This document shows, piece by piece, positions 23,001 to 55,600 of a stretch of 64,000 nucleotides of DNA; positions within the stretch are counted from its first letter, which is position 1; every line of letters begins with the position of its first letter. The position numbers were made by a program, and so were the translations under genes. The stretch is from Octopus vulgaris (taxonomy: Eukaryota): NCBI GenBank assembly GCA_951406725.2, contig OX597833.1, positions 59,458,001 to 59,522,000 of the forward strand. The letters are read 5' to 3'. The notes under the pieces were generated by a model. That model ran no database searches, had not been told where the DNA came from, and saw only the letters and a list, made by a program, of their open reading frames with translations.

Positions 23001-26000
23001 ATATGTCTGCTTTTCTAATAAACTATTTTATTTTATTTCTTTATATATTGTTCATTCATCTTTGTCTGTAGGATGGAATCGCAAAAAGTTTGTGGTTTTA
23101 CTTTATCAATCTTGATTTATTTTTATTGACAATAATCTCCAGTTATATAGGCACCAATAATCAGAATTTTGATCCATAGAATTCATGCTTTTGTGTGTGT
23201 GTGTATGTGTGTGTGCGCACGCGTGCGTGTGTGTGTGATGAAACCAAAGTGCAAGAAATTTAGCACCTCCTCTTTACATTTACCATAATAATGGTGGTTA
23301 TTCAATTTTGTGAAGTATGTGGAACAAACGGTTATATTGTACACGTGGAGGCGCAATGGCCCAGTGGTTAGGGCAGCGGACTCGCGGTCGTAGGATCGCG
23401 GTTTCGATTCCCAGACCGGGCATTGTGAGTGTTTATTGAGCAAAAACACCTAAAGCTTCACAAGGCTCCGGCAGGGGGGGGGGGGGTGAACCCTGCTGTA
23501 CTCTTTCACCACAACTTTCTCTCACTCTTTCTTCCTGTTTCTGTTGTACCTGTATTTCAAAGGGCCAGCCTTGTCACACTCTGTGTCACGCTGAATCTCC
23601 CCGAGAACTACGTTAAGGGTGCACGTGTCTGTGGAGTGCTCAGCCATTTGCACGTTAATTCCATGAGCAAGCTGTTCCGTTGATCGTATCAGCTGGGACC
23701 CTCATCGTCGTAACCGACGGAGTGCTCCTATATTATATTGTACACACCTGTCACAGTAAGATTCACTCAACTATGACTCTGCTGAGAAGCTAAAGTTGCA
23801 CCATCACACTATATGGCCACTGTATTACAACTTTTATTTTTAGAAGATTTTCTTTCAATAAATCAACTCTTAATATTGAATATTTAATTAAAATGAACAT
23901 TCTAATTTTATCTTAGCTATTTGAGGAAAGTAAACAGTAAAGCATCTTGCTATCCTATGATGATTTATATCAGATATTTCACTCCAGTAATGAGAGGGAC
24001 AAAAATATTACTAATTTCCGTTATTATTTTTGCTCCTCCAAAGGATGATGTTATAATGGAGAACAACTGTAACAATGAAAGTCTTGGTAGCTTAGGTTCC
24101 CTGGGTAGCATCCCTGACATTATGGACAACTCAAGTGTAGAAGAAGACGTATCATCATGTCAACAGAAAGATATAACACCTTGCTTACCACTTTTTATCT
24201 CATCCAGGTGAGTATTGCTAGCATTTCAACAAAACCCTGTTACCGTCTTTTGAATTACTGTTTTAATTTAATGCTGACCTTGAGTTGAATAGCTTTACTG
24301 TAAATTGAACTAATAATCGTTTTCAAAAACTTTCATGTCAGTGTTGCTAAGTTGCTATCATGACTGTAGACAAATCAGTATTCTCAAACTGTTTATTCTA
24401 ATAAGTTTTGAGACCAAATTACTTGCTTCTTCAATCAAGAAAACAGAAATAACCAGCCAACCTATAATATCAATAATGAATACAAAATCATTTTTTTTTT
24501 CAAATCCCAGACAATGCATATTCTACATTATAGTTTATCTTCCTACTTCTCACCACATACCCCTAAAAGTCTTGCCATAATCAGTCTTCTTTGTCTTCCC
24601 TTTTCAGTAATTAATTAAGTTTCTGTTCATTTCTTACAACTAATCATACCAGTAGGACACTAATCTCCAGGAGTATCCATGAAGTAAAATGCTCTATTCT
24701 CCTCACCTAATAAATATATATGCAAACAAAATACAGTATATTGAAATATTATATCTCCCAATGACTTCCAATGATGATATTATGGTTTTAGTCTAAATAA
24801 AACTCATTACTGCATTTCTATTTTAAAGCAATTAATCATTTTATTGTTGTCAACATTTCAGGTTCAAGTGTCTTCGAGAATTCGATGACACGTCCCATGG
24901 AAAAAAGTGGAATAATTTTCGCCGTCGTTTAATGATGGTTTGTGAAAACAAATATTTCGAAACTGGTGTGCTAATAATGATTTTTGCAAGTAGTATTTTA
25001 TTGGTAAGTAATGAAACAGCCAAGTTTCTATGTTGATATTGAAAGATGTGAGAACAAAGTAAAACGTAAGAAAAATCAAGCCAAAAGACACCTCTCTGAA
25101 AAATGACACACACACATTCAGTTAGAATGTGTATGTCCTTTCCTTTTATTGAAGGAACAGGCCATCCAATAAAACTGATCTCAGCTACAATGATGGCACC
25201 AATGTGAGCATTGATGTAACTGCATATCAAAATCAAGTCACACTCAGCTATGCCACTCATGATGACAACCCTCAGTAAGTCCTTGGCTCCACAGGGCTGC
25301 CAGCCAGTTCCTTCCACCCACACCAATGATGTCTTAGACACAGCAATCCAGAAAGTTCAAATCATGCAAGTTAGGAGATCACATGATCACACAATTCTCC
25401 TAGATCTTGTTGGATATTAACTGCTCTTTCTTCATCATGTAGATTTTGTTTCTGATAGTGGACTCCATCTCCTTGAATTACTTGGCAATGGTTCTCGTTG
25501 ACCGGCTAGGGTTGTCATTAATAATGTTCTGGACCAGCTTAACAAACTGAATATGTCTGACCGTTGAGAATGTTTCTTTCCCTTGGCTACAGATGATCTG
25601 TCTCAGCCAAAAGCTTTCGACTATTTCTCACAAAGGCCCAATCACATTCAAGAAGCTGGCAAATTCAGAGTTGCTATTGTTGGTAATTTGAGTCACAAGT
25701 ACAATGTGTCTTTTTATTTCCTATGTCAGATAGGAATCTATCATGCTGATACATCTGAAAGAGGAATTAGAGAGTTAAAATTTGGCACATCCCACATAAC
25801 ACTATATTAGCTTTTGTTCACTTAGCTTATCAAAGTATGTTCACAAATATCCAATGCATGCTGTACATGTTATATCAATGTGACTGGAATAATATTCATC
25901 TATAGCAGACACATTTGAAATAGACTCTTAATATAAAGAAATGGTTGCGTGTGTACAATAGACACATTTCAATAAAGAAACAACTTTGAAATATTGATTC

Positions 26001-28968
26001 AACATATTTACATTTTAAAAATAACATATTTTCTTTCTTAGAATTACTTGAAATAGATTTTTATCTCATTTCAAAATTAGTACAATATGTGGTTATCAGT
26101 TTTGCTGTTAACATTGTTGGCTGCATGTTTCGAACACTCTCCACAATATGTGGTCCTGAATGTTTTAAAATTTTTATTTTGTGGTTAATTTAATGCCTTA
26201 AAACTCCATTACTTGATTTCATAGATTTTGTCTCATTATAAGAATTTGACACATTTCAATGACATTGGATGATGTCACACTAAAAGAGAGTATGTAAGAT
26301 ACTTCTGGATATAAAATTGTGGTATGGATTCTTCAATTCTTTGTCTTCCAGACAATCTCTGTGATTCATGGATTTCACTGAACAAATAATCCTTTTACAC
26401 TTCCTTCTTATTACCACATTGTGTTCCAGCCACATAAATGAATGCCAAATATCTATAGACAACACAATAAATAGTAAACATATTGTTTACTATTGTACAT
26501 TTACAATATGCAATTGTATATTTGTGTATTGGCAAATATTGATGGCTTTAGGATGCCTTTAGATTGGAATCTGTATCAAAACATTGAACAGTAAATATAC
26601 CTGTTGGCAGTTACTTCTGAAATTGTCAACAGCATTCATGGAATTTAATCATCAATCTAAACTAGCTATTGAAACAGTAAATAAATTAGATTAATGTTCT
26701 TCACAGATTCCTGTACTAGACCTTTAAAAGTCTGTAATTCAAATGATGTTCCACTTTTTACTACAGTCTTATTCACAAGATGAGATAGTCATTCAGAAAC
26801 CAACCTTTCAAAATTTTTATTTAAGGCACTCATGTTTACAGTGTAAATTGCTTGTGAATATGTAAGTGAAGCTTCCATAACAGCATTATCTCAATTGACT
26901 CTGCTTCAGTAGTCATAGTGGGTGTATATAGTTTGTGCATATGTAAAAATTAACATGGCCATAACAAAGAATGCTTTCATGCAAAATCTGTCAAAGCAAA
27001 CAGCCAAATTATAACAAGACTAATTATATTCCTAAGCATCTCATTCTCTGTGGGTATTTTTACGCAAATCCAGTTTTCAAGGAAATTGTGGGATCTCAAG
27101 TGTATAATAGAATTATTAACCTATTTTATGCATTGTTTAAAAACATTTGTTTTTGGCATCATTATTATTGAAAGTATCATTAGGAGCGAAATAAAACTGT
27201 TTTGTCTATTAGTACTTTTAATCTTATATTTTGTTCCTTCACTGGTAGTCAATTTCTCAATGTATTGCTTCCTTAAGTATCTTAGCCTAATACCTAATTA
27301 TATTTTATCTCTCATAATTGATCAATTTGTTAGTGTATCTCTTCTTGAGTTAACCTATTTTATAAGTCTATTTAACCCTTTAGTGTTCACATTATTATAC
27401 CAAAATTAATCCTTTTTTATCCACATTGCCTTGAACTAATCATGCATTATCTTGTAGCTGAGAGATTTTGATGAGGTAGCTGTTAATTTTTAAAACGATA
27501 TTGAAGGGTTGGTGTGAGAGACCAGATCTGGCCATTTTGAACATAAAACAGGCTGAATATTTTTGGCCGGATTTGGCCGGTTTAAATGCTAAAGGGTTAA
27601 ATCATATCTCATAATAAATCCTGACATATTCTAAAACTACTTTCTATTGGTATTCTTTAAACCTTAATAACACTATTTCTAATTATTTCTTGCAAATACT
27701 CTGACAAAACTGTTAGAGGTGTATTTCATAAGTTTCAAACACAATTTCTAATATCAAGTCATATTTTGCTCTTTCATTTTTGCAGGCATTTGAAGATATT
27801 TATTTACATGAAAAGCCTTACTTAAAACTTGCACTTTTTTACTTGGATATTACATTTTGTTTGCTGTTCTTCCTTGAAATGGTTCTAAAGCTTTTAGCGC
27901 TTGGGTTCGTCCATTACTATACGCACTTCTGGACCATACTTGATTTTACCATTGTTTGCGTAAGTAAAATATTTACATTATTCTATTTCAACTGTTAATT
28001 TCATTTTTTATTTATTCACTAATGTTTGTCATCCTGTCAATTCTTGTCATGTTTAAACAAAAGCATTTAACTTTAATGTATCATTAACAACATTATGGTT
28101 ATTATCTACAATATCAAATCATACTATATTAAACATTTAATCTGTAATAGAGACATCAGACAGCAACATTATTTTCTCACTCAGCCTTTCCAGAAATTAG
28201 GTAACATTCCCATTTAACAAAAAACTGATTCTTGGATATTTCAACTAATTGTTTGCAGGTTTATCCATTTAATGTTAACAGGAAACAGACAAATGAGAAA
28301 ATACTAAAAACTAATAAGGCAAAACCACATAAACATTTTTTTTTTTTTTGTTCCTCATGTTTTTCATATTTTGTAACTTGAACTATGAATTAAAATCATT
28401 TTGAAATAATTCTTTCTCGGATAGTGGATACAACTCTACTTAAAAGTGAACAGTAGCATTAAATATTGTAAAAGATTTGGTGAAAACATAAACGATCTAT
28501 ACTACAAATTAATTTCTTTAGCATTTCCGCTGAAATAACTTATATATATACACACTCACACATGCATATATACACATACACACACACATATATATACATA
28601 CACACACACATATATATACATACATATATATGTGTGTGTATGTGTGTGTGTATTATATATACATCTACATATATATGTATGCATATATATATATGTATGT
28701 GTCTGTATGTATATATGCATGTATGTATGTATTCATGTATGTATGTATGTACACAAGCATACATATGATTGACCATGCTCAATACATGACAATCAAACCA
28801 CTCAGGTTTTGACTCTAATGTTAATCACATTAAATTCCCACTGTTACTTGTACACACAGGTCATCCATATTCAAGGGCGGGCTATGAAGTATAACATAGA
28901 ACATGGCAATAACAAGAGAAAAGAGCATTGACTTGATACTCTTTTAGATATATATGTATATGCATGTA

Positions 28969-29535: not shown

Positions 29536-32500
29536 GTACACACACACATGTATACATACATCATCCTTTAACGTCCATGTTACATGCTGGCATGGGTTAG
29601 ATGTGTGTGTGAGTGTATATATATATATATATATATATCATCACTTAACATACATATATATATAAATATATAATATATAAACTTTGGTTTAAAATTAACC
29701 AAATTCCTCTTACATTAGTGTCTGTTATTTGCATGAGCTTTGCTTATTTAAATGTTACTTAGAAAAATGTCAATTTTTATTAATGGAAGATGCCATGTAT
29801 GCCAAAAACAATTTTGTGAACATCTTCTAAGGCAGCTGTCAATTTATTCTGGCAAACCATTAATAGTGATCTATAGATGCCTATCACATGTTTGTATGAT
29901 AATAATAATCAATGACACAGAAAAGGATTCTTAGCAGAGAAATTTATTGGTAAAATTCACAGACACTTTCATTATTTCTACTTGGTTCTTTTTTCATTTT
30001 TATTTTTCTCTTTCTCTCATTTCATAAGATATTTCAAAGTTGATACTCATTTTGAATTATATCAATTTCTAGGAAATACTTATCAATAATTTAGAGTTCA
30101 TTGGAATTCTCTTTGAAATAATAATATTCCACAAAGATTGAATTACTTTTGATTGAAATAATCCTGTTTTCTTTAATAGCTTGTCTTTTAAAAGCCCACC
30201 CACTCATTTTTTTTTTATTGGTTCTTTTAAAGATTTATCACAAGTACATGAACCATATTAATTGCAATAGTTTTAGATACTGACTAAAAACAAACACAGT
30301 TTACATATTGTGCTTTCTTTAAACAATCAATGCATTTCAAAAGGTGATGCTACTTTTTAAAACAGATGCACTAGATCCAGTTTGAAATCATTCATTGTGC
30401 ATTATTACTTCCATAGATTTAGTAATGTGATTCTCAACATATTACATTATCACAAACATACTTTTGTTATGTTCAGAAATTTTATTGATGAGCATTATAG
30501 AAATTATTCAGTATCTTTGCATAGTTACATTCATTTATCACTATCACCATTATTCCCTTCTTTTCCACACTCCAATTCTCTTTGCAATACCATTCTGTTC
30601 AACAAATATTCATCAGAACAAAATGTTTAACCTCTCGCTATTTCACCAAAATAAATATGAAATGGTTTAATGTTTGCTTTCCTTTCATAATTTAATGTCA
30701 ACCCTCCATAACATAAAATTATCAAAATCTGCAAATTCCTTCACTTATGTTCTTTCACACGTCAACTATGTACAGTTCACTATATCATCATAAAGTGAAG
30801 CTATTTACTAGTTAAGTAATCCATGACTTGACAAACTAATAGCACTACAATTCAACCTGTACTTTCGCCAAACAACCTTCTCTTTGGTTTCTTTCTATTT
30901 GGATAATTCACTAATTTGTCTTTATTTCATTTTCTCTAGATAACAATTATAAGTCTCGCAGCATCAGGTTTAGGTATGGAACAAATCACTGCTTTTCGAT
31001 CCCTCCGAACACTTCGTGCACTGAGGCCTCTTCGTGCGGTCTCTCGGTGGCAAGGAATGAAGGTATGATTATATTATTTCTAGACTTTACCAGTAAATTC
31101 TTCACTGGGTATATTCCCAGCAATAACTTTCTGTTGTTATCCTGCTTGTAAACTTTTTCAGAGAACTTAGCTTTACGTTAGTAATAGGAGTATCTCTGAA
31201 GACAATTGTCTACATGTCACCCAACTTGACATTTCATGTTAATGACAGTTAAAATAGTTAAATCACCATTCCCATTTCAGGTACATTTTCCCATCCTCCG
31301 CTATATTCTTCTGATGTTACTTTTAGATCATTGTCTGTTTCATTTAATGAATAGCGGACTGTATGAAACTGACTTATTTTAAACCTCAACAGAGGAATTA
31401 TTTAATTCAGTGGCTGTTTTATGGTATTCTTTTGTATTTTTTCTCAAGAAAGTTTGCATTGATGTAATGAAAACCCAACATAAACGATCTGGCTGTTGTA
31501 GAGGGCTGCCATGAAGGTGGTGGTGGTGGTGATAGTGGTGGGGCAGCAATAAAATTCTAAGCGTTTTTTTTTACTTTCCCTTTTGTGTAAAATGGTCTTC
31601 GTGCTATAAATTACTAGCTATCATCACCATCACCAACATCATTACCATTACTAATGTGAGTCGGACAGCTATTGATATCAGAGCTTACAATCAAAATAGA
31701 AAGAAAACTGTCATATGCTGCTACTAAATATAACCTGACTTAATAGCAAAAATTAAAAGCAGTCTGTTTTTTTGAAAACAGTCTATCATTTTAATGCAGC
31801 AATGCTAATGGCTTGGCTTGAAAATATATTCTCAAAAGGTCACTGCTGACTGATTTTAAAACTCTTGATATGGACTGAATTTATTTCATTTCTTCAATCA
31901 ATTTTTAATCTGTTAGACTCTTCTCTTTAAGATACAGCTCCTCTGCACTCCTCTGGGACACTAAACTTTTCTTGCTTTCTAATCTTTCTTGGTAGTAATG
32001 GTTTGTAGAAATATTGAGATGTATGTTAATAATATTCTCAAATAAATGTGTTTACTTTCAGCTGAGTGCAGCCAAGTAGGTCCTTGAATTACACAAATCC
32101 TATAGATCAATTGTTCTATTATGCATTTCTTAAGGATATCAAGCACTACTTTGATCAAATATTTATAGATATTCAATGTATCTCATTTGAAAAGGATAGC
32201 ATTTGTCTCAAGGCAATTCTAGACAATCTAGGATATATACTGTCTTCTGCATTAGCAGTTCTTCAAGTCCTTTTCTAGAAATAACCAGTGGGCAGACAAG
32301 CAACTACATCTAATACTAACAGAAAATGAAGGCCAATCCACAGTTGCACCTAAGATTCATATACATTCTGGTTCTCTTTACTCTTTTACTCTTTTACTTG
32401 TTTCAGTCATTTGACTGCAGCCATGCTGGAGCACCGCCTTTAGTCGAGCAACTCGACCCCGGGACTTATTCTTTGTAAGCCCAGTACTTATTCTATCGGT

Positions 32501-33998
32501 CTCTTTTGCCGAACCGCTAAATGATGGGGACGTAAACACACCAGCATCGGTTGTCAAGCAATGCTAGGAGGACAAACACAGACACACAAACACACACGCA
32601 CACACATATGTATACATATATACGACGGGCTTCTTTCAGTTTATGTCTACCAAATCTACTCACAAGGCTTTGGTCGGCCCGAGGCTATAGTAGAAGACAC
32701 TTGCCCAAGGTGCCACACAGTGGGACTGAACCCAGAACCATGTGGTTGGTAAGCAAGCTACTTACCACACAGCCACTCCTGCGCCTATAATGGTTTTTTT
32801 TTCTACAATTTTTTTTCCAATGAAACTCATTACAGTATTCTAATTATTGCCAATCATTAAACCATTAGGTTTTACTCTAGTTTTGGTCATCTTTGACAGT
32901 GTTGGTTACAATTTCAAAATGAATCTTTCCACAATAATTACCATACCAGATTCTATTCTGATAGAAGTCATTAAGGTGCTGCAATGTGTCAGTTCTTCAG
33001 TTGCCTCCTAAATACCCATAAAATTATCAACCATCTTGCAAACAATAACTCTGAGCACCTTTTCAAACTCCACCCATCTAACACCCGTGGACATATTTAC
33101 AAAGTCAGAAAACAGCACAGACTTTAGGAAACATTTTTTCACGCTGAGAGTTGCTGAAGCATGGAACAAACTGCCAGCATCAGTTGTTAGTTGTCGGAGC
33201 ACTGCATCCTTCAAAACTTCCATGCTTTCTGAGATTCGCCAACACTACACCTGATTTTCTCCCCTCCATACACACACAAGCATGTATCTGACTCATACCC
33301 TGTTCCCTTCCCAGACATTTGTACATTACTGCATATACTCTATACGCACTTTCTGACAAGTTGTGATGTACCTGAGCACTGTATACAATAATTTCATTAT
33401 TATTATTATTATTATTATTATAAAATTATTATTATTATTATTATTGAGTGAGAGAGCAGTTCATGCCATCAAAGTGACATCATAACCATATGTGCACGAC
33501 ATGGTGATCTCATATCAAGATAAACAGCACATGACCTTGCAGGTGGGGCCCAGTTAGAATTTTCTTCAGGTCGAGTAGCCCATCCCGCTCAAAAGGTCCC
33601 TGAATAAGGATTGTTTAAGGATGTTGAATGAAACACTCATGTTTCCAGAGGTGAATTATTAAAACCCCAAAGAATCCCTCTCAACACATGGCTATGATGC
33701 TCCCCCACTACTTCTGCTCGTGATCAGAGATGCACATATCGTCAGCCACTAAGGGACATGCTCAACTGGTTAAAGTCAAACAACTGAGAAGCAAATCTGT
33801 GGTATTGAGCAGAATATTTGCTGTAGCCCATCTTTTATACCAAGACAAAACAATGTACATGATAACACTTCCAATCAGTTAAGATCAGAAGCCATGAGAG
33901 CCACTGCCTGGTACTGCATCAGGGCATAGGTACTGCATCAGGGCATGGTACTGCATCAGGGCATTTTACTGCATCAGGGCATTGGTACTGCATCAGGG

Positions 33999-34032
<34 letters not shown>

Positions 34033-36996
34033 CTCTGTGTAGTGATAGTATTGATAGATTCTTCTTTAATGATACATCTCAACTCTATTTCCTCTTTCTT
34101 TCAGATCATTGTTAACGCTTTGATGCTGTCAATTCCTTCTATTTTCAACGTCCTGTTGGTGTGCGTTGTGTTCTGGCTGATATTTGCTATCATGGGAGTG
34201 CAGTTATTTGCGGGAAAGTTCTACAAGTGTGTCAACGAGACAAATATGAGGATCTCCCCAACGGAGGTGGCCAGCAAACAAGAATGTCTTTATAAAAACT
34301 ATACTTGGGTAAATTCAAAAGTAAACTTTGACAATGTAGGAGGAGCTTTCCTTGCTTTATTTCAAGTGGTAAGTTGTTTCTTTTTTTTTTTTTTTGGTGG
34401 AGGCGCAATGGCCCAGTGGTTAGGGTAGCGGACTCGCGGTCATAGGATCACGGTTTCGATTCCCAGACCGGGCGTTGTGAATGTTTATTGAGCGAAAACA
34501 CCTAAAAAGCTCCACGAGGCTCCGGCAGGGGATGTTGATGATCCCTGCTGTACTCTTTCACCACAACTTTCTCTCACTCTTACTTCCTGTTTCTGTTGTA
34601 CCTGTATTTCAAGGGGCCGGCCTTGTCACACTCTGTGTCACGCTGAATATCCCCGAGAACTACGTTAAGGGTGCACGTGTCTGTGGAGTGCTCAGCCGCT
34701 TGCACGTTAATTTCACGAGCAAGCTGTTCCGTTGATTCGGATCAACCGGAACCCTCGTTGTCGTAACCGACGGAGTGCTTCCATCCATCCAGTTTCTTTT
34801 TAATATTCAGTGTTTACATATTTGGTTAAGTTTCAATGCTACATACTTACATTTTCACAAACAAAATATACTTAAACTATACAAAAATAGCATAAAATAA
34901 TGTCAGATTTCATATTTAACCCTTTAGCATTTAAACCAGCCATATCCGGCCAAAAGTATTCTGCCTGTTTTATGTTCAAACTGGCCATATCTGGTCTCTC
35001 ACACCAACCCTACAATATCATTTTAAAAATTAACAGTTACCTCATCAAAATCTCATAGCTACAAGATAATGCATGATTAGTTCAAAACAATACGGATAAA
35101 GAAGCATTAATTTTGGCAGAATAATGCAAACACTAAAGGGTTAAGCTTATAACTACTTCACTAAATATAACTCACAATATGATATATCCAGTGTACTAAA
35201 TTATACATAACCCTAATCCAATAACCTATAGCTCTTACTATCATGAAGCCTAAGTTTGTCTTTTTACTGTATAATAATTAGTGATGCCACTTAATTCTTT
35301 ACTCTATTGTTACTTGTACAAAGTTTAATGCTTTCATTTTACAACTTCTTGCTAAACTATGGCTATTTTTAGCCTTTTATTCTGAATCTCTCTTCCCTCT
35401 CCATCCCCAAGAGGATATAAAGAGAACTTTATATCCAGTTGTTTGGCTGAGAAAGTAGAATGATGTGCTTAATTTGTATTTTGAATCGCTGTGGATTTAA
35501 TTAATTCTGAAAGGAAAAACATTGCTTTTCATTGGAAGAGTGACAAGAAATAATTAGCAGTGCAATGGGATTGGTGTCTGCTGCATTTGTATTAGTTGTG
35601 TGGAGGAATATGAAATAGATAAAATGTATTCCGTTGTTAGAAGACTGTCAGAATAGTCATGTATTGTCTGTGTAGTATGAAGTATTGTTCTCATTTCTGT
35701 GTTTTTGTACTCATTGAAAATTCAATTAAAACTATAAACAAATTAGAAAGTTCTCAGAATTTAGCTTTTGTGACCTTTAACATTTTTGGCAATCAATCAT
35801 TAGCACAAAAAAGATAGAGAAAATTTCTTTATCTCACAATTCATTTTATTAAAATGGCTGAGATTTTATACACTAAACAATTCAATCCTCTGGAATAAAG
35901 TTAAGTAAAAGACAGAGTTATTGATTTTATATAATTCCTTAATTATTAGCTACATATTCATTTTAAAGTCCACCACTTCATATTGGCAATGCACAGTGAC
36001 CTCTTTCTAAATGAATCTCTCTTTAGTTACATCTATTTCCATTAGCTCACTTATACTTCATTTCATCTCTTGTTTAATGTATTTTTATTTTCACAATCAT
36101 TTAGCAACCAGCATCCATTCTCATGACAGGGCTCTACCAAGTTGTCTTGCCTATCGTCTGGATACCATTTCCCCGACAGTTACTCACTCAAATCCCATTA
36201 AGTTTCACATACCTTCATTCAGACTTCAATCAAATATACATATATTAAATTCCCATCTTTCCTCATTAACAGCCAACTTTCAATATCTTCTGACTTTTAT
36301 TCTTATCTGTAATGACCTGAAGTTGTTTGGTCATCTCTCGATAGATTGTTTCCCTACTCTGCCCCATATCACTCTAATGCAGAATTACCTAAGTCGTGTT
36401 CATATCTGATAAGAGTTGACAGCTTATCAGTTCTATTATATTGGATGAAGTGTTAGTATTCTGCTCCTGATACCTTTTCATCATATTTGTACATGTTTCT
36501 GTAAGCAAAGCCTTTTGAGAGATTTTGGGAGACAGAAACTGGAAGGAAGCTCATTATTATCATCATCATATTTAAACATCCATTTTCCATACTGACATAG
36601 GTTGGAAGGTTCAACAGGAACCGACAAGCCAGAGAAGTGCTCTGAGCTCAAGTGTCTGCTTTGGCATGATTTCTACAGCCAGACACCCTTCCAATCACTG
36701 TACAAAGTGTACTGGATGCTTTGACGTGGCACCAGCACAAGACCCATAAACTGAGTGATTCCAAAATGAAAAGTGTGGAATAAAATATCTTACCTGAAAG
36801 TAGGTAAAGGTTAGCTTCAAGAAGAGCATCTAGCTGTAGAATACTGTTTCATAAAGTCTCACTGAACTCATGCCAGCATGGGAAAAGCAGACGTAAAACT
36901 GACCCTGACAATGATGATGATGATAGACAAGAAAGTAGATTGATAGATAGAGAGATAAGTAGGTAGATAGATAAACAGGTGCACTCATACATACTT

Positions 36997-37314: not shown

Positions 37315-40300
37315 ATCTCAGTGTGCTTCAGCTATTGATAACTGTTGACAGCAATAATTCATTGTAAAATATAAACAAGGCAACTGTTTGCTCCTCCAGC
37401 TTTTATTCTAAGGTATTTTACCCTATTTCCCAACAGGCTACATTTGAAGGATGGATGGAAATCATGGCAGATGCGGTAGATGTTACCGAAGTAAGTACCA
37501 AATTTTACTCCCCTTCACCAACAACACTAATCTACTAATTCACCTCAGAAGAAGACAAGAGAACAAAAATCAAAGAAATCAGCTTCTTTTCATCAATATA
37601 TTGATATTCAGTGCAGTGATAGAGCTGTTCTTCTATGGTGTAGACTGAATTATTCTTTTAACTATATTACACTGAAGTTATTTTATCCAAGGAGAAACCC
37701 AGAATAGTACAGCTAAGTTCTGAATATTAACAACTTTGACAAGAGAAATAGTTTCAGTGTTTTTATTTTGTCATATTGTGAGCAAACTATTGCGGCTTCC
37801 TCTCATTACTTTGCATAATTTCTCTGTGACATGCATTTCCCATACATACAGCATGCAATATTAGATGACGTTATAGTTGCTTTGCAGTTAACATCCTTCA
37901 TTTGTCTCCTATAGAAATCTGGCATTAAGAAACACTATTACTGCCAGGAATGTGGCACAAGCAAATCCAAGGACGTTCTCAAGCCACAACAATGTTAATT
38001 GTATGATGCTGAGTTCAAGTTCTGTCAACAACTATTCTTACTAACAGCTTGGGACTAGAGTTAGACACTTAATCTTTTACTCTTTTACTTGTTTCAGTCA
38101 TGTGACTGTGGCCATGCTGGAGCACTGCCTTTAGTCGATCAAATCGACCCCAGGACTTATTCTTTGTAAGCCTAGTACTTATTTTATCGGTCTCTTTTTG
38201 CCAAACCGCTAAGTTACGGGGACGTATACACACCAACATCAGTTGTCAAGCGATGTTGGGGGGACAAACACAGACACACAAATACGCACATACACATATA
38301 TATATATATATATATATACATATATACGACGGGCTTCTTTCAGTTTCCGTCTACCAAATCCACTCACAAGGCTTTGGTCGGCCCGAGGCTATAGTAGAAG
38401 ACACTTATCCAAGGTGGGACTGAACCCGGAACCATGTGGTTCGTAAGCAAGCTACTTACCACACAGCCACTCCTGTGCCTATAGAGTAATGTAGAGAAAT
38501 GACTTCATTTGTTATTGTTCTTTCATCATCTGAACAGCAACACTACATACCATATTTAATGATGTATCATCTATACAAAGCCTGTAGACTACTACACATT
38601 AACGTCACATTGTACAACTTCCAGTTGGTTTCCCTTACTATGACAAGCCTACACTAGCCTACCACTTCTCCATGAATCTTTAATTCCATCTTTCTTAAAA
38701 CCAAGCACAACCAGTTTCTATTCTTGTCTGACTTCTTTTCACTCTTCAACAATACAGGAAATGAAAATCTCTCCAACACTCACCAATGTACAATCCCTCC
38801 TCAGACTCTTCTTCAATAAAATCCTTAAATTCGTCATTGATTTATGTCTTCTAACCTGTTTCTAATTTAAAACCAGTCAGAGAGCACAAACCTCCACCAA
38901 GGCAACACCAACGTCCTCTCAACGATTAGCCAGAGATGGTTTACAAAATGAGAATATCTGAAATAAACTCAACTGCTCTCACAAAGAAGAATACTAAAAA
39001 ATGAACCTGACCACTCTCAAAAATTAAGTAAAAAAAAAAAACAAGAAAAATAATCCAGAATTCTTGTCTGGTACTAGATCGATTCCAAAATCTAATCAGT
39101 TCATGCCAGTCATGAGGCCAAACATCCTTGAAAGTTTTATCTGAATCTATCCAGCAGTTTTTGAGGTATCTTGTCCTCGGACAAACAAACAAACACAACT
39201 GAAAACAATACCTTTGCCTTCGCTAAGGCAGAGGTAATTAATACTTCCTGTTCATATCTAGGATTCCAATGCTGTTATACACAAGTATTCTCAACACTGC
39301 ACTTTTCTACTGTTGTCACTTGATGTCATCTGCACATTTTCCAGCCCCACTTGTGTGATTAAGAAGTTTACTTGGCAATCATCTGGTGCCAGGTTTGATC
39401 CCACTATTCAGCATCCTGGGTCTTGGCTAGATAAACTTTACTTGTTGCTAGTATTCCATTTCAATACTACTACCTGCTCCTGGGGTAACCTGGGTCTTGG
39501 CTAGATAAACTTTACTTGTTGCTAGTATTCCATTTCAATACTACTACCTGCTCCTGGGGTAACTTTAACAGACACCACTTCAATGCAAACTTTTGGGCCT
39601 GGTCTCTAGTCATAACAATAACCTGATATCATGATTTTCCATTTGTTACTGCAACATCCCATTAGTTGCAGGGTTCATCTTTCCATTCTTCCTCACCAAT
39701 CATAAAGATGAAGGTCTCTGCACTCCCCCACCAAACATGCAAATCCTTTGCAGGTTAGAGTCACTACCCTTTTGTACAATGAGTACTGTAGTGCTGGTGA
39801 AATACCTTAGAACTGTGAGGGGATACCATAAAACCATGACAGAGTACTGTAGAATTGTGTTGGAACAGTGTAAGACTGTAAGAGGGTGCTGTAAAACTTG
39901 GTGGGGTAACATAGAACAGGGGTAGACAGTACTTATAGAACTATGGTGGAGTACCATAGAATTGTGGTGAAGTATTGATGCACTGGGGTGAGGTACCATA
40001 GAATTATGGTGGGGTACCATACAGTTGTGGTGAGTATTGTAGAGCCTTCTTGCAGAACCAAGGACACTGTGACGAGATGCCGAAAGGCTGATGGAGTACC
40101 ATTGAAATGTGGTGGGATACATCAGCTTCTGTAGAAGTGTGGTGAGGAACACAATCTCTCATGTAGGAGAATGCATATATATGGAGACATGTAGGATAGT
40201 ATAGCAACGCTAAAAGTATAAGATGAACTAGTTGTGAAATTTGTAATTATGTTACTTACAATATGTTCTGTTATCATAGTAAACATTATTATTCCAGTGG

Positions 40301-43260
40301 TTACCACCAACTAACCTTTATTCTTACTTCCACAGGTGGATCAGCAACCTAAATTTGAAGCCAGTGTGTATTATTATTTTTATTTTGTATTGTTCATCAT
40401 TTTTGGCTCCTTTTTTGTGTTGAATCTTGTCATCGGCGTTATTATTGATAAATTTAGCTTCCTTAAGAAAAAGGTAAGTAAACTTACAGATTTCTTGAAT
40501 TTAATTCTTCCTCTTTGTATTATCTAGTTAAATTTATACCCCTAAGTACTAGAACTTTCGGATCTTTTCAGTTTGAATGGCAGTTTTTAACATAATTTCT
40601 AGGTAACTAAAAAATTTTTAACTTCTTATACTGGTAGAATGTGTTTATAAAACATCTTTTTCTCTTGGCTTTATTGAGAAAATTCTATAGTTTGTAAAAT
40701 ATTTGTGGGTTTTTTTTTTCAATTTCTGCAATTTCAACCAATCAGTGAAGTCCATTGAGGTAAACAACATTCTGTGCCGTATGAATATGTCCCCCGTTTA
40801 AGAAACAGATTGGGTTTATTTACATTTGTGAAGAAAAAAAGATACCCTTCCCCCCCACCCCTAACCCTAACCCTAAAATAGATTGAAATGCAATAGATCA
40901 TAATTATGGGTGACAATTTCATATGGCACCGCTAGAAAAAACTGCCGTTCAAACCGAAAAGATCCAAACTTTCATCATATATAGAAAAGTGGCCATTTCA
41001 GTAATTCTATAGCTAAAGAATGACATTGCTAGTAACCAGCTCACACTATAAAGTCTATGTGAGAGATTATTGCAGTTAAAAATAGAGGTTAGTGATTCTT
41101 TAAAATAGTTAGTGAACTAGAGTGATCTGTTGTTAAGTGTTTAACTGATGTGGTAGTCTCATGTAAAATGGAGTAGATAGAGAGACATAGATTCTGAAAA
41201 ACTAACTGGTTTTTATTACTATCTCTGAAAAACAAACTTCCTTTTATTTACTACCTCTGTTTTTTTCTACTTGCAGTACGATGGAACATATTTAGACATG
41301 TTTCTTACACCAACTCAGCAAAACTACTATAATACATTAAAAAAGTTGGGTACCAAAAAACCTCAAAAGACTGTCAGAAAACCAAAGGTAAGTCAAAAAA
41401 TTGTTTTCTCTTCAGTTTTCCATTTTAGAGTTGTTCCACTGATTTTGGTCGTTGTGGGTACTTACAGATGAACTATGCACTTTTATGCAGTCTGATAAAG
41501 TGTTGACACTCAAATCTTTACCACAAACAGAGTAACTCAAACAAGATTTGAATCTAACGATTCAGTTTCAATATATTTTTTTCTTGTCAAACAGTTTTCT
41601 GTTGGCCAGTTTATTCATAACATTGTTATAGCAGGGAGTTTGTTACCTTGTTTGATATTTTACTCTTTAACAAATTATCTTTCTAAAGTCAACACCTATA
41701 GCAAAGATATGAGCAGGGAAGGAAGTATAGAGATATGACATTCTGGTAATGAAAGAAGGGTTGGACATAATAGATAATAAGGAGCTTGGGGGTGTTGGAC
41801 ACAATATGGGAGTTGAGAAGGGAGACAAATGAGTTAAGAATGCCTATGTGGAGAGATAGCTTGAACCCAACAAGCTCTAAAGAGATCATTATAGTAGCAA
41901 TAAATATGAGTGAGAGAGGGGGTGGCACACCTGTAATCAAGAGGATGGACTATGTCTGTGACTTTATGCTAATCAGCCAAATGGCTTTTCTCTGGATGCA
42001 GTCAAGGATGTCTGTGTCTTCAGTAGTAGTACCATCCCAGATGTAAGACCAGAACTCCACTGTGAGCCTCACCTGATCTTTGTAGAGTCTCAATAATTGT
42101 TGGGGAATTATAAGGGCAGCAAGCTGGCTGAATCGTTAGCACGCCAGGCAAAATGCTTAGCGGTATTTCGTCTGCCATTACGTTCTGAGTTCAAATTCCA
42201 CCAAGGTCGACTTTGCCTTTCATCCTTTCGGGGTCAATTAAATAAGTACCAGTTACACACTGGAGTTGATGTAATTGACTTAAACCCTTTGCTTGTCCCT
42301 TCTATGTTTAGCCCCCTGTGGGCAATAAAGAAATAAATAATTGTTGGGGAATGAAGTATCTTTTGGTCCTGAAAATAAAGGCCTGTCTTTTGGATGCAGC
42401 CCTAAATATGTTAAGACTATACTTTCACCAGGAGAGATCTTCGAGCATAATGAGAGCTAACATTTGGAGCAATTGTTAAAGATCTAGTTGAGAGCTGCTC
42501 GTGAATAAAGAGGAGAATAATATTTAATATAATAAATTTATTTTACTTAGCAGTATTGATGTGAAGTTGCTGTCATCTGTTATTTCTCTGAGAGTCGTGA
42601 AATATAGCACCAGCAGAATTTGAATTTGACTTATAAGAAACTACTTATAACATCCTTCCAATTTAATCTGGTTCTGTACAACTCTCACAGTTTGCTTAGG
42701 GTCATAAAGTTAGCCTTATTAAATCAAATTGAATTTATACAACTCCAACATTTATTCAGCTGTAGTGAAGAGATTATAAGCATGTAATCTAATGCAAGAC
42801 AGGGCACTAATGGCCTGTGTGTGCTTTGAAATCTGTCTAATAACATAAACAAACAATATCTAACTCTTCTGATAGCCTTTCTATTATTTTCCTACACCTT
42901 GTCCTGATTTTTCCATGTTTTGTTTCATATTATTTTTTTTTCTTCTTCACACAGAACAAATGCCAGGCTGTTGTCTATGACCTTGTAATGAGTAACCAGT
43001 TTGAGATCTTTATCACTACTATTATCATTACAAATATGATATTTATGGCATTTGAGCATTATAATCAATCAGATGTAGTAACTGAAGTTTTGGCCACAGC
43101 TAATATTGCTTTTACCATTTTATATGCGTTTGAAGCAATCATCAAAATTGTAGCATTAAGGATACATTATCTTCGTAATCTGTGGAATGTATTTGACTTT
43201 CTAGTCGTAAGTTTATCTGTTGTTGGTAAGTACCTTTTTATCTAATGCTTTTCTTCTTTG

Positions 43261-43291
<31 letters not shown>

Positions 43292-43441
43292 ATGAGGGAT
43301 GGGATAAAGTTCCTAGGTTTAAGTTGTTGAAAACACTCATAAATTGTGAGAGCTGAGTAACTGGGGTTGATTGTTGTTGCCTTATTGAACAATGATAAAT
43401 TAATTGTAACACTAACAATGATTACAGGCATTCTAAATACT

Positions 43442-43480
<39 letters not shown>

Positions 43481-44610
43481 TTGTCCAATAAATTACAGTT
43501 AAATGTCTAGATAACCTTGTATACTCTCTGTTAAACTTTATTCTAATATATTCTATTTTTCTATCTCTTACAGATGCTTTCTTAAATGATGTCTTTGGTG
43601 CTGGCATGTTCATGAACCCTTCACTACTTAGAGTTGCTAGAATGTTTCGTATTGGTCGTATTATTCGTCTTATTAAATGGGCTAAAGGAATGCGAAAGCT
43701 TTTATTTGCGCTTGTGATATCGTTGCCGGCATTATTCAACATAGGAGCTCTGCTTTTTCTCGTTATGTTTATCTATACAATTATTGGAATGTCTTCCTTT
43801 GGACAAATTAAACTATCAGGTGCACTGAATGACCAAGTCAATTTTCAGACATTTGGAAAGACATTTCTACTTTTAGTTCGCTTAGCAACCTCAGCAGGCT
43901 GGAATGATATCTTGGGGCCGTTACTTATTCAGCCACCAAACTGTGATCCAAATTACACCACAACAAGCACAGGGGAAAAAATCAAATTAGTCAATGGAGA
44001 CTGTGGAATGCCCTGGCTTGCCATTTCATACATGGTGTCCTATATCATTATCGTATTCATGATTGTGTTTAATATGTATATTGCTGTTATCTTGGAAAAC
44101 TTTAACCAGGCACATGCCCAAGAGGAAGTAGGAATTACAGAAGATGATTTAGATATGTTTTATGGCGTCTGGGAACAATATGATCCCTTAGCTACACAAT
44201 TTATAAAACATGATCAGCTGTCCGATTTCATTCAAGATCTCGATCCCCCATTGAAAGTGAAAAAACCCAATAACGTTGCTATTGCGACATTTGACCTACC
44301 AATAGTTAAAGGAGGCCATATACACTGCCTCGATATTCTGTTGGCCTTAGTCAAATTTGCTCTCGGTGGTAACTTGGAAGAAACTGAAGCTTTCAAAAGG
44401 GTACGTACACAAATGGAGGCTAAATTCGATAAAATTTTCCCCACCAGAGAGAAGTCTGAAATTCGAACTAGTACTCTCCAAATGAGAAGAGAAGAAATGG
44501 CAGCAAGAATCTTACAAAGAGCATGGCGGCGCCGGAAAATCATGCAAAGTTTCCCCTCTCCAGAAATGATTAGGTATTATATTATTTCAGCTCCAGAAAC
44601 AGCGGTATGA
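19997..44610 (+). CDS. Nav2: Voltage-gated Na+/Ca2+ channel alpha subunit, Nav2 (DSC1/BSC1-like) class; 5'-partial spliced CDS join(19997-20058,24044-24207,24862-25003,27786-27959,30940-31062,34105-34368,37437-37490,40336-40473,41277-41387,42955-43225,43574-44610)
   Basis: All exons are bounded by AG/GT with compatible phases. Total 2540 nt = 2 leading nt + 846 codons ending TGA at 44610. Contains S4 motifs, P-loops TFEGW and TSAGW, a III-IV linker, and an EF-hand-like/IQ C-terminus. Confidence 0.93.
21040..22150 (-). pseudogene. hAT (Charlie/Buster-like) transposase fossil
   Basis: Minus-strand broken frames give LCEDM..H / [15 protein letters not shown] (cf. HTEVRWLSRG), [16 protein letters not shown], and [28 protein letters not shown] (hAT dimerisation domain). 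Confidence 0.75.
23346..23730 (+). mobile_element. tRNA-derived SINE, family B
   Basis: A-box TGGCCCAGTGG and B-box GTTTCGATTCC. 13-bp TSD TTATATTGTACAC at 23332-23344 and 23733-23745. Near-identical to the copies at 34397 and 55601. Confidence 0.92.
24044..24207 (+). CDS. Nav2: DII-DIII linker exon ([55 protein letters not shown])
   Basis: Acceptor ...gctcctccaaag and donor AG|gtgagt. Phase 2 end fits the next exon. The 'PCLP' precedes DIII as in Nav channels. Confidence 0.85.
24862..25003 (+). CDS. Nav2: Pre-S1 and DIII S1 exon ([47 protein letters not shown])
   Basis: tttcag acceptor and gtaagt donor. W..FR....V.EN..FE....MI..SS..L motif. Confidence 0.95.
25130..25860 (-). pseudogene. 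Tc1/mariner (maT-like) transposase fossil
   Basis: Minus strand [15 protein letters not shown] (cf. WPPNSPDLNPLDYYVW) and [18 protein letters not shown] (HTH region). Multiple stops. Confidence 0.55.
27376..27596. mobile_element. piggyBac-like MITE (221 bp)
   Basis: TTAA|CCCTTTAG...CTAAAGGG|TTAA. An inverted homologue lies at 34920-35140. Confidence 0.88.
27786..27959 (+). CDS. Nav2: DIII S2-S3 exon, 174 nt ([11 protein letters not shown]...[11 protein letters not shown])
   Basis: tgcag/gtaagt boundaries. AFEDIYL, EMVLK and W..LDF motifs. Confidence 0.97.
29079..29126 (-). ncRNA. Minimal type-I hammerhead ribozyme motif, Penelope-like pseudo-LTR type
   Basis: Minus strand GTCT-CTGATGA-A-GGG(loop)CCC-G-GAAAC-AGCT-GTA-AGAC: stem I GTCT/AGAC, intact core, palindromic stem III and GUA cleavage triplet. 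Confidence 0.7.
29431..29478. repeat. Perfect 21-bp inverted repeat with 6-nt spacer
   Basis: ACAAGTAATAAGAGAGAGACC-gcatgt-GGTCTCTCTCTTATTACTTGT. Confidence 0.95.
30940..31062 (+). CDS. Nav2: DIII S3-S4 exon, 123 nt ([41 protein letters not shown])
   Basis: tctag/gtatga boundaries. Canonical IIIS4 voltage sensor [14 protein letters not shown]. Not in the ORF track because it is short. Confidence 0.98.
32374..32785 (-). mobile_element. tRNA-head SINE, family A (other copies: 38073-38479 -, 50040-50439 -, 56658-57045 +, 60611-61005 -, 62290-62700 +; degenerate near 22305 and 12290)
   Basis: Shared head GGCGCAGGAGTGGCTGTGTGGTAAG..GGTTCAGTCCC, internal (TA)/(TG) microsatellite and tail CCAGCATGGC..GACTGAAACAAGTAAAAGAG. 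Confidence 0.92.
33011..33420 (+). mobile_element. CR1-clade LINE 3' fragment with (ATT)n tail
   Basis: [29 protein letters not shown]1 C-terminal motif. Same family as 58929-59533. Confidence 0.88.
33445..34001. mobile_element. ~550-bp non-coding interspersed element embedded in (TTA)n, ending in five tandem ~18-bp units
   Basis: (TTA)n on both sides. GGTACTGCATCAGGGCAT x5 at 33910-34001. Confidence 0.65.
34105..34368 (+). CDS. Nav2: DIII S4-5 linker, S5 and turret exon, 264 nt ([20 protein letters not shown]...[15 protein letters not shown])
   Basis: ttcag/gtaagt boundaries. [24 protein letters not shown] and NFDNV motifs. Confidence 0.98.
34397..34790 (+). mobile_element. tRNA-derived SINE, family B
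   Basis: Near-identical to the 23346 copy. Inserted in a poly-T tract about 30 nt after the exon donor. Confidence 0.92.
34920..35140. mobile_element. piggyBac-like MITE (221 bp), inverted relative to the 27376 copy
   Basis: TTAA|CCCTTTAGCATTTAAA...CACTAAAGGG|TTAA. Confidence 0.88.
37437..37490 (+). CDS. Nav2: DIII pore-loop exon, 54 nt ([18 protein letters not shown])
   Basis: caacag/gtaagt boundaries. The selectivity-filter codon at 37446-37448 is GAA (Glu). Confidence 0.98.
38870..39240 (-). mobile_element. Helentron-associated (HINE/DINE-1-like) non-autonomous element
   Basis: Minus strand starts TTACCTCTGCCTTAGCGAAGGCAAAGGT (hairpin), continues with (GTTT)n, and ends with subterminal TTGGTGGAGGT plus a short tail. 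This is the HINE architecture. Confidence 0.6.
39415..39562. repeat. Perfect 74-bp tandem duplication
   Basis: CCTGGGTCTTGGCTAGATAAAC...CTCCTGGGGTAA occurs twice (39415-39488 and 39489-39562). Confidence 0.93.
39780..40150. repeat. Degenerate ~21-bp minisatellite (GTACTGTAGAACTGTGGTGGA-like)
   Basis: Recurrent GTAC(C/T)(A/G)TAGAA(C/T)T(A/G)TGGTG units. Confidence 0.7.
40336..40473 (+). CDS. Nav2: DIII S6 exon, 138 nt ([46 protein letters not shown])
   Basis: cacag/gtaagt boundaries. [17 protein letters not shown] motif. Confidence 0.98.
40560..40965. mobile_element. MITE with ~29-bp TIRs and 8-bp TSD (Merlin-like); partial inverted copy at about 55045-55369
   Basis: GGATCTTTTCAGTTTGAATGGCAGTTTTT ... 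AAAAACTGCCGTTCAAACCGAAAAGATCC. Flanks are GAACTTTC and AAACTTTC. Internal CCCTAA repeats. Confidence 0.8.
41277..41387 (+). CDS. Nav2: III-IV linker (inactivation gate) exon, 111 nt ([37 protein letters not shown])
   Basis: ttgcag/gtaagt boundaries. MFLT..Q..YY..KKLG.KKPQK motif. Confidence 0.98.
42113..42338 (+). mobile_element. SINE family C (younger copies at 48423-48651 -, 57709-57942 -; degenerate 63160-63340 +)
   Basis: Same head, B-box and core as the 1.2-4 kb cluster. Confidence 0.88.
42955..43225 (+). CDS. Nav2: DIV S1-S3 exon, 271 nt
   Basis: acacag/gtaagt boundaries. [13 protein letters not shown] and WNVFDFLVV motifs. Phase 1 end. Confidence 0.97.
43574..44610 (+). CDS. Nav2: Terminal coding exon: DIV S4-S6, EF-hand-like domain, IQ-like motif, C-terminal ETAV
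   Basis: ttacag acceptor. [17 protein letters not shown]4, [10 protein letters not shown]-loop, [12 protein letters not shown]6, [16 protein letters not shown] and [13 protein letters not shown]. Stop TGA. Confidence 0.98.
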
Positions 44611-48351: not shown

Positions 48352-50589
48352 ATATGGACAGGTTCAAGGACCATGTCTTGCTGGTATTTTCTAATTTAGG
48401 GCTTGGTCTCTACAATTATATGTTTCTTTATTACCCACAAGGGGCTAAACATAGAGGGGACAAACAAGGACAGACAAACGAATTAAGTCGATTGCATCGA
48501 CCCCAGTGCATAACTGGTACTTAATTTATCGACCTCGAAAGGATGAAAGGCAAAGTCGACCTCGGCGGAATTTGAACCCAGAATGTAACGGCAGACGAAA
48601 TATGGCTACGTATTTCGTCCAGCGTGCTAACGTTTCTGCCAGCTCGCCGCCTTCCTTCCTAACACTGACAACTGCTCACTGCCCAGTGTTGTCATCGTTC
48701 TGGGCACCATGAAAGTGATTTCAGAAGATGAAGAAAGGGGTGTGAGGGTGAAGTTGGAAACAGACTGATTGAGATGAAAATATAGAAGCAGAGTGTAATA
48801 TGAAAGAGTGAGAGATTAATAGAAGCTACATAAGTGATAGATGGTTGTGGAAATGGCTGGAGGTAAAAGAGCGTGATGGAGATAAAAGTTGCTAGGTGAT
48901 AGGCAGCAAGACATAGAGAACTGATGAGAGAATATGGATGATGGTAAGAGAGGATAAACAGAGGATGTGTTAGATGCTAAGTGGTCTTGTGTAATCCTTC
49001 ATTACTCAGGCAGCATGATGAGAGAGAGAGAGACGAGGTAAAGAGGTACAGCTGGTAGCCAGAGTAAGGAACTTTTAATATGAATACATCTAAATTATTC
49101 CTTCATTATGGGTGATACACTGCATTGAACAAAAGAATGGCAGGTGGCAGATTAAAGGGTATCAAAGAGGTAACAAGAACATTAGACAGAGACTCATCAT
49201 CATTATCATCAATTAATATCTACTTTCCATGATGGCCTCGGTTGGACTGTTTTGACAAGATCTGACAGGTCGTACTCCAATGTCTATTTTGGTTTGGTTT
49301 CTACATCCTGATGGTCCTTCCAATTACCAACTACTTTATAGAGTGTACTGGATACTTTTTTGTCATGGTACCCAGTACTAGTGAAGTTGTCTTGCAACCT
49401 GCAAGACTAAGAAAGCTTAACAGATCCCCTATAACTGAAGAAGATTTAAAGAGAGAGAGAAAAAAGAGAATGTGATGATTATAGGCAAGGTGATGAGAGG
49501 AACAGGTTTATAATTGTGAGCAGGTAATAGAGAGTAACAGAGTAGTTACTATAGGGGAAAGGATTAATAAAGGAACAGATGATAGAGAAGGAAATAGGAT
49601 CAGTGCTTAGTGAGAAAGGATAAGATGGGTAGTTTGGCAGACAAAATTAGCAAAAGGCCCAAATGTAGATACATTTTTCCCAGCTTACATCACTATTCAA
49701 ATTTTATCATGTTTCACCTTGCTTGCACAGATAGTTGGGTGTGCCACTAATTATCGCAGATGTAACATCTTGGGGTCTGTCTGCACAAAAATATGTTTGA
49801 AAATTTCCTTCCTTTGAGAGTATATACCACTTCTTCATACAGCTGCTATCTTTCCTAATCATCATATGTCCAAAGCAGCACAGTCTTCTCTCTTTTGCAC
49901 ACTACATCTGATTACTCTCTCAAATACTCAGACATTACCAGTGAGCTGTTACACAATCGATTATGTTGCATACATATATAACTGGTATACAGTATGAATA
50001 TATATATATATATATATATACATATCTTCTTTTTTTTTATCTTTTACTTGTTTCAGTCATTTGACTGTGGCCATGCTGGAGCACCGCCTTTTAGTCGAGC
50101 AAATCGACCCCAGGACTTATTCTTTGTAAGCCTAGTACTTATCCTATCGGTCTCTTTTGCCGAACCGCTAAGTAACGGGGACGTAAGCACACCAGCATCG
50201 GTTGTCAAGCGATGTTGGGGAGATAAACACAGACACACAAACACACACACACACATATATATACACATATATATATATATATGACGGGCTTCTTTCAGTT
50301 TCCGTCTACCAAATCCACTCACAAGGCTTTGGTCGGCCCGAGGCTATAGTAGAAGACACTTGCCCAAGGTGCCACGCAACAGGACTGAACCCGGAACTGT
50401 GTGGCTGGTAAGCAAGCTACTTACCACACAGCCACTCCTACATATATATATATATAGGAAAAAAAATTTCTTTCAAAAAGGTTAATAACATCCTGATAAA
50501 GGATTTTATAACTTTTTTTAAATAATTGTTTTTTAAATCCCCTTTATACTTAAAAACTATATTAAGTAATTTTCACAAAGACTTTCAGA

Positions 50590-54620: not shown

Positions 54621-54819
54621 TAAATATGAGTTGAAGGAAGATGATAAGAATGAGGAATGGATATCAATAGAAGTGACTCAAGGGTGAGGAGGTGATGACT
54701 GGCATTAGAGAAAGGGTGAAGAGTAGCAGAATAATAATAAAACAGTAGGTAAAGGAGGAAAGATGAGAGATGGGGCTATGACTGGTAGGGATGGGTGAGT
54801 AAAGAGTACAAGAGTGGGA

Positions 54820-55003
54820 GAATGGAAGACATATACTACCCAATATTTTAGGATCTCAGCAATAATTCCTTGTGGCCCAGGGACTTTTCCTGTCTTCATA
54901 TCCTTAATTGCTTTATCTATCATAATACTGCCTCCTAGAATGGTTGATCCTTCCATCAGTTTTCCATCAAGAAGACTCTCTTTTTCCCATTCTTTGTCCA
55001 CAT
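54820..55003 (-). mobile_element. LINE ORF2 fragment (pre-RT region)
   Basis: IDKAIKDMKTGKVPGPQGIIAEILK (cf. K(A/S)PGPDGI.AE.LK). Confidence 0.65.
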
Positions 55004-55600
55004 TTAGCAGCCTTTCATAGTAGCACTTCCATGCCTCTTTCCTTCTGTTTTAGGGTTAGGGTTAGGGGTGGGGGAAGGGTATCTTTTTTTTTTCTTCACA
55101 AATGTAAATAAACCCAATCTGTTTCTTAAACGAGGGACATATTCATACGGCACAGAATGTTTTTTTACCTCAATAGACGTCATTGATTGGTTGAAATTGC
55201 AGAAATTGAAGAAAAAAAACAACAAATATCTTACAAACTATAGAATTTTCTCAATAAAGCCAAGAGAAAAAGATGTTTTATGAACACATTCTACCAGTAT
55301 ACGAAGTTTAAAATTTTTTAGTTACCTAGAAATTATTTTTAAAAACTGCTGTTCGGACCGAAAAGATCCCAAAACAATTTGAATAAATAAGCATTACATT
55401 TGGCAATAATCTGAAGCCTAACAGATTAGACTGATGTGAAACAGTCTTACCAAACATTTTCCTTTGCGAGTTCCTCATACATGGGAAATAAGTTATCTAA
55501 GGGGCGCAACTCTGGGTTTCCCCATTTCTGGTCATTTCCTCTTCGGCTTCTAAATATTGATGGATTTTGTGGTTTGGCAGTGAAGTTACTTCTCTTAGGG

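Follow-up and report, generated by a model that had tools for sequence, protein, structure and literature searches.

The final exons of a spliced octopus Nav2 gene with a D-E-E-A filter, likely a Ca2+-passing rather than a Na+-selecting channel

The gene and its selectivity filter

The window analysed here, a stretch of 64,000 nucleotides of Octopus vulgaris DNA (C20:59458001-59522000 in G000), carries on its forward strand the final part of a gene for a four-domain channel of the Nav type, the rest of which was found upstream by tblastn with four lophotrochozoan homologues. The exons and sites recognised within the window are as follows.

24044..24207, + strand: probably the final II-III linker exon, 5' end deduced; canonical ends, frame shared with the exon that follows, no homologue match
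24862..25003, + strand: DIII S1 exon (tblastn with mollusc Nav2, gene model)
27786..27959, + strand: DIII S2-S3 exon (tblastn, gene model)
30940..31062, + strand: DIII S3-S4 voltage sensor exon (tblastn, gene model)
34105..34368, + strand: DIII S5, turret and P1 helix exon (tblastn, gene model; Pfam Ion_trans, E 1.6e-16)
37437..37490, + strand: DIII pore-loop exon, AG/GT ends, in frame; 3' joint to 40336 in 4 of 4 runs
37446..37448, + strand: DIII selectivity-filter Glu, a Lys in Nav1 (sequence and homologue alignment)
40336..40473, + strand: DIII S6 exon (tblastn, gene model; both joints in 4 of 4 runs)
41277..41387, + strand: III-IV linker exon with the MFL inactivation motif at 41298-41306 (model; joints in 4 of 4 runs)
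42955..43225, + strand: DIV S1-S3 exon (tblastn, model; joints in 4 of 4 runs)
43574..44610, + strand: last coding exon, with DIV S4-S6, the C-terminal domain, LQRAWR at 44512-44529 and the stop TGA at 44608-44610 (Pfam Ion_trans and GPHH above cut-off)
43719, + strand: A>G, codon ATA (Ile) to ATG (Met), DIV S4-S5 linker (contigs of 3 of 4 runs)
43894..43896, + strand: DIV selectivity-filter Ala (sequence)

The DIII pore-loop exon comprises 54 nt encoding 18 residues and reads from cag/GCT ACA TTT GAA GGA TGG ATG GAA ATC ATG to ACC GAA/gtaagt, the GAA at 37446-37448 being the Glu codon of the ten-residue pore part. Its reading frame agrees with those of the exons on either side, for DIII S5-P1 (34105-34368) and DIII S6 (40336-40473), and the motif A[TS][FY]xGW has its single match here when the three forward-strand frames of 264 kb (the window and 200 kb upstream) are scanned. 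Assembled contigs of four public runs from four studies, out of 24 runs listed, none of them recorded as RNA, were compared with the genome; the RNA status of the runs was guessed, whereas the intron-free joints were seen directly. Each of the four runs holds one contig in which 37490 is spliced to 40336 across a GT..AG intron, and at codon 37446-37448 only the genome letters occur in all of them. The joints 40473-41277, 41387-42955 and 43225-43574 were likewise found in all four, again across GT..AG introns, so that transcript support covers the last five exons, while joints upstream of 37437 rest on the gene model. Since the motif is unique in 264 kb, stands in frame between DIII exons and is spliced in contigs of every run compared, a chance match is ruled out and the DIII Glu exon is confirmed as real. 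The Glu at 37446 had been read from the window in an earlier note on this DNA, and exon and contigs agree with it; the TSAGW loop and filter Ala which that note gave for DIV were also recovered, as ATSAGWND in the last coding exon.

The DI and DII residues were correctly said there to lie outside the window. The DI loop is LLTQDYWED, with the filter Asp at L014:8783-8785 (C20:59326783), 131 kb upstream of the window, and the DII loop is LCGEWIE, with the filter Glu at L004:1019-1021 (C20:59419019), 39 kb upstream; these are the Asp and Glu that had been anticipated, and the complete filter is D-E-E-A. The outer ring, read two residues after each conserved Trp, is D-E-E-D, its DI Asp being found in 45 of 80 scorable DIII-Glu homologues.

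The gene model consists of 22 exons and 1,473 residues in stop-free blocks of 334, 314 and 825, and covers DI to DIV of the 4x6TM plan in frame. All exons have GT-AG ends, which speaks against U12-type introns among them. The S4 segments are arginine-rich, with 4, 4, 6 and 9 R/K in the stretches counted, the III-IV linker bears MFL, and the C-terminus contains a GPHH domain and the IQ-like motif LQRAWR. These 22 exons do not include the N-terminal exon(s) or the whole of the I-II and II-III linkers: in the 280 kb preceding the window, tblastn gave no match for the former 5' of the first exon identified, and exon phases require at least one further exon in each of the two linkers. About 60 kb separate the last DII exon from the next recognised exon (L004:4248 onwards to window position 24043). 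An ORF at 13418-13741 was considered as a II-III linker exon; a GT donor lies close to its end, but it matched no homologue and was left out. His and Cys are frequent at the end of the I-II linker (L007:2911-3000, where the DII S1 exon begins), with a CSCCKKCCRCC run just before DII S1, for which palmitoylation or metal sites are a possible guess.

Placement among Nav1 and Nav2 channels

Compared with chosen homologues, the window protein is 48-58% identical to 20 DIII-Glu proteins and 41-47% to 14 Nav1 proteins. In a FastTree phylogeny (LG+gamma, 35 proteins, 1,326 columns, midpoint root without a Cav outgroup) the octopus model is sister to nine other mollusc Nav2 (SH 0.92) within a protostome Nav2 clade that includes insect DSC1/60E (1.0), with Nav1 apart (1.0). 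On fixed trees, placement at the base of Nav1 was worse by 150 and placement beside octopod Nav1 by 518 log-likelihood units, and both were rejected in an AU test of 2,000 replicates, a number flagged by the program as too few. Tree and test thus uphold the assignment to Nav2/DSC1 instead of Nav1/para that had been suggested from the window. A DII Lys (DKEA), which had been named together with a Nav1/para grouping as evidence against that assignment and which marks the cnidarian Na+-selective Nav2.5, is absent, the octopus DII residue being Glu. The filters of Cav1-3 and NALCN (EEEE, EEDD, EKEE, EEKE) do not match DEEA, and the last exon aligned to Nav chains in PDB at E 1e-100 and to Cav chains at E 1e-40.

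A DEKA paralogue was identified on C11, with the loops TQDYWEN, CGEWIE, ATFKGW and TSAGWD and, in its last exon, 99% identity with para of O. bimaculoides and 97% with Nav1 of Hapalochlaena; as judged from these likenesses, it is the octopus Nav1. The paralogue search was run with two exons, DIII S5 and the last (DIV) one; each of them returned this one close paralogue and one weak match among 11 and 14 candidates scored, counts that are a lower bound. The C11 gene spans G000:C11:43714000-43861400 (L021-L036), and its DIII and DIV loops, KGWID and AGWDG, equal those of O. bimaculoides without the Hapalochlaena TTX-resistance changes KGWTE and AGWHS. The weak matches (E ~3e-4), G000:C6:94352788-94352958 to DIV and G000:C21:234158-234283 to the DIII exon, probably belong, at a guess, to further four-domain channels, for example Cav or NALCN.

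On this sequence evidence the window gene can be assigned with near certainty to octopus Nav2, of the DSC1/BSC1/CaV4 family. Such a gene is already known, since a squid DEEA channel and octopod Nav1 and Nav2 are in print. In the accessible part of PMC7656900, Nav1 and Nav2 are described in Hapalochlaena maculosa, Octopus bimaculoides and Callistoctopus minor, one each per genome, and the Nav2 of H. lunulata is attributed to Geffeney 2019. The octopod Nav2 of that study keeps the Met after the DIII filter, as in GWME of the window protein, and is almost certainly its orthologue. The portion of its supplement available states the function of cephalopod Nav2 as unknown, in keeping with the earlier remark that the channel is little characterised, and reports octopod brain expression at levels like those of Nav1. 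The accessible text of PMC3809514 attributes to Sato and Matsumoto 1992 (PMID 1339273) a squid Nav-like channel with the same DEEA filter, and oyster CgNav2 is described as DEEA in what is available of PMC5295241. The earlier statement that vertebrates lost Nav2 is right in part, being too wide, as lampreys, ghostshark and coelacanth are said to keep the gene in the accessible part of PMC6259924 (citing Zakon 2017). The homologues retrieved in three ways for alignment contained no cephalopod Nav2 protein, which reflects a limit of the search and not an absence.

Bivalve and gastropod Nav2, the sister group at 53-58% identity, share with the octopus protein DEEA, AGWN in DIV, mostly MFL and mostly a DEED outer ring, whereas their DI reads T-L-D and their IIS6 is of full length and includes the Asn; in the octopus, DI reads T-Q-D and IIS6 is shorter and Asn-less. 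Their entry name 'sodium channel protein 1 brain-like' presumably derives from the squid protein. Insect DSC1, BSC1 and honeybee CaV4 have DEEA and MFL in common with octopus Nav2, which is some 53-54% identical to the insect proteins in the alignment, and have been expressed experimentally, whereas the octopus channel is known here from sequence. The DEED outer ring is shared with honeybee CaV4, in contrast to NEED in DSC1 and BSC1 (PMC10983803, Table 1, in the accessible part). Nav1/para channels, including the C11 gene, share the four-domain plan, the D-E-x-A filter, T-Q-D in DI and the DIII-DIV exon layout, but form a separate clade with DIII Lys, an MFM/IFM linker motif and Asp three residues after the DIV Ala, where octopus Nav2 has Asn.

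Departures in the pore and A>G sites

Two features of the pore depart from Nav2 relatives. The IIS6 segment of the octopus model reads G-K-T/L-F-F-L-F, as against G-N-x-x-x-L-N-L-F in relatives; it is one residue shorter, has Lys after Gly and lacks the Asn that is a hallmark of S6 in the Nav/Cav superfamily and is present in DI, DIII and DIV of the model. The segment is split over two exons upstream of the window (L004:1090-1108 and L004:4070-4110; C20:59419090-59422110), so that the short form rests on a gene model whose joint was predicted here from DNA. Another splice choice was rejected, as the upstream AG 24 nt away adds an in-frame stop and does not restore a normal helix. Among 253 homologues that contain a DII pore motif the short form does not occur, although many of these are isoforms or close kin and such counts overstate independence. 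By pattern, 227 of them have an IIS6 of standard length, with Asn in 224 and His, Tyr and Cys once each; the remaining 26 comprise, by eye, 12 of standard length and 14 cut or mis-joined gene models.

According to the accessible part of PMC8876033, the S6 asparagines are exceptionally conserved and probably arose as evolutionary insertions associated with pi-bulges one helix turn upstream, and they stabilise the open pore via inter-segment H-bonds. The missing residue maps about where the pi-bulge forms, and it is therefore a reasonable guess that the octopus IIS6 would be purely alpha-helical. A search of the open-access literature for this IIS6 change brought up a general review and nothing more specific. 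Should cDNA and other cephalopods bear out the short, Asn-less IIS6, it would provide a rare natural test of a residue regarded as key to Nav/Cav gating.

The second departure is the Gln preceding the DI Asp (L014:8780-8782), a Nav1-type residue in an otherwise Nav2-like pore loop. It was found in 103 of 104 DIII-Lys proteins and in none of the 89 DIII-Glu proteins scored. Since the residues around it are Nav2-like, the Gln fits a point change and not a patch of Nav1, and gene conversion from Nav1 was rejected as its source.

Within the coding exons compared, all three differences between contigs and genome are sense-strand A>G. The change at 43719, in three of the four runs, turns ATA into ATG and Ile into Met in the DIV S4-S5 linker; that at 43986 (one of four runs) is silent, as is that at 44349 (four of four), which lies in a TAG context. 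In an alignment with human Nav, the residue at 43719 falls on the second Met of LMMSLP, and Met also occurs naturally at the equivalent position in a few relatives, two Nav2 proteins reading 'IM'. A Met pair in DIV S4-S5 is reported to affect inactivation (PMC2229313, accessible part). The pattern of the three sites fits A-to-I editing, which is described as abundant in squid in the available text of PMC4384741; alleles would look alike. The supplement of PMC4384741 lists genes under human SCN names only, without a site for Nav2.

Predicted permeation, rival explanations and other sequence

Orthologues recorded elsewhere give some guidance on permeation, here as far as the accessible parts of the papers go. 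NvNav2.1 of Nematostella (DEEA) passes mainly Ba2+/Ca2+ current, with PK/PNa = 1 and no effect of 100 uM TTX; E-to-K made it Ca2+-impermeable, and pore residues beyond the filter ring also matter (PMC3809514). Honeybee CaV4 (DEEA/DEED) passes no Na+, and MFL-to-AAA abolishes its inactivation (PMC10983803), while expressed Nav2 channels are termed slow and non-selective in a review (PMC6259924). DEEA orthologues thus differ, being non-selective in choanoflagellate (PMC6259924) and anemone (PMC3809514) and Ca2+-selective in honeybee (PMC10983803). In the open-access literature, including the available parts of PMC10120453 and PMC12919962, no recording of a molluscan or lophotrochozoan Nav2 was found.

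By analogy, it would be a Lys in DIII that keeps Ca2+ out, and DEEA channels would let it pass; depolarisation would move the S4 segments and open the pore, three carboxylates without Lys would admit Ca2+ and possibly Na+ and K+, and MFL would close the channel slowly. Tetrodotoxin would be expected not to block octopus Nav2, to judge from the anemone channel, which has the same AGWND in DIV. It is very probable that the octopus channel would be Ca2+-permeable, and, given that, the chances of strong Ca2+ selectivity and of non-selectivity are about even; the D-E-E-D ring, as in the Na+-impermeable honeybee CaV4, would tip these odds somewhat towards Ca2+ preference. The two pore departures, the short IIS6 without Asn and the DI Gln, make such transfer of properties from orthologues less safe. 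The likely role would be a slow depolarising, Ca2+-signalling current in neurons, beside the spike-carrying Nav1. A DEEA filter is what one would expect of this known gene, and on that point little changes; a brain-expressed octopod 'sodium channel' that passes Ca2+ could, however, underlie part of the cephalopod neuronal currents now assigned to other channels.

There is a very good case, on the whole of this evidence, that the window holds the end of an octopus Nav2 gene which is intact and spliced, has a DEEA filter and encodes a channel that probably passes Ca2+ rather than selecting Na+. Just the general similarity to Nav1 (41-47% identity) would speak for the octopus Nav1/para with a Lys-to-Glu change, an assembly error or a pseudogene, a reading of negligible probability that is refuted by the true DEKA Nav1 on C11, by tree and AU test, by 22 exons without stops or frameshifts and by contigs from four studies that match the Glu codon. 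It is also very improbable that the channel selects Na+ despite its DIII Glu, whether by means of further pore residues or of an alternative exon that encodes Lys. A Nav1-type Gln does stand beside the filter Asp, and molluscs are reported to have alternative filter exons in NALCN and turret exons in Cav3 (PMC6259924, accessible part); however, DII is Glu and the filter hence not DKEA, the Glu exon is present in contigs of all four runs, and the Nav2-like surroundings of the Gln suit a point change. Neither motif scan nor tblastn detected a second copy of any pore-loop exon in 264 kb, the tblastn matches outside exons being low-complexity, and Na+ selectivity is tied to a DII or DIII Lys in every case described in the available parts of PMC6259924 and PMC10120453.

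An altered inner pore might instead make this Nav2 gate abnormally or hardly conduct; it would then be a sensor-type protein that leaks, reacts very slowly or does not conduct. The IIS6 lacks a residue and the Asn that reportedly stabilises the open pore (PMC8876033, accessible part), and the octopus branch is the longest among mollusc Nav2 (0.62 vs ~0.39-0.49 from the same node). Such a state is nonetheless unlikely, since the protein retains its filter, its S4 charges, MFL and the Asn in three of its S6 helices (DI, DIII, DIV), no reading frame is broken and the transcript undergoes splicing; the IIS6 Asn is moreover replaced by H, Y or C in 3 of 227 other homologues. A more elaborate version of the Ca2+-passing Nav2 is doubtful. 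It would have the IIS6 loss remove both pi-bulge capacity and an open-state H-bond, the DI Gln gained independently, and A-to-I editing install a Met that matches the second of two methionines tuning inactivation in the Nav1.5 DIV S4-S5 linker. If true, nature would have put the S6 Asn/pi-bulge model to the test, and the octopus would have a Ca2+ current with inactivation set by RNA editing.

The window also contains dispersed and repetitive sequence. Intronic dispersed repeats lie at 38080-38480, 40550-40970 and 42130-42340 and are covered by thousands of short contigs; that at 38080-38480 is SINE-like and recurs at ~32540-32790, 50050-50480, 56640-57010, 60590-61010 and 62280-62700. Short ORFs at 462-752, 54708-55049 and 59094-59585, all on the reverse strand, resemble what we take to be fragments of non-LTR retrotransposon proteins; Pfam assigned no family to any of the five repeat-like ORFs tested, these three included. 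In six-frame translation, two similar ATT-microsatellite-rich blocks with shared unique flanks were seen at 850-2100, a pair that represents either a local duplication or an assembly echo.
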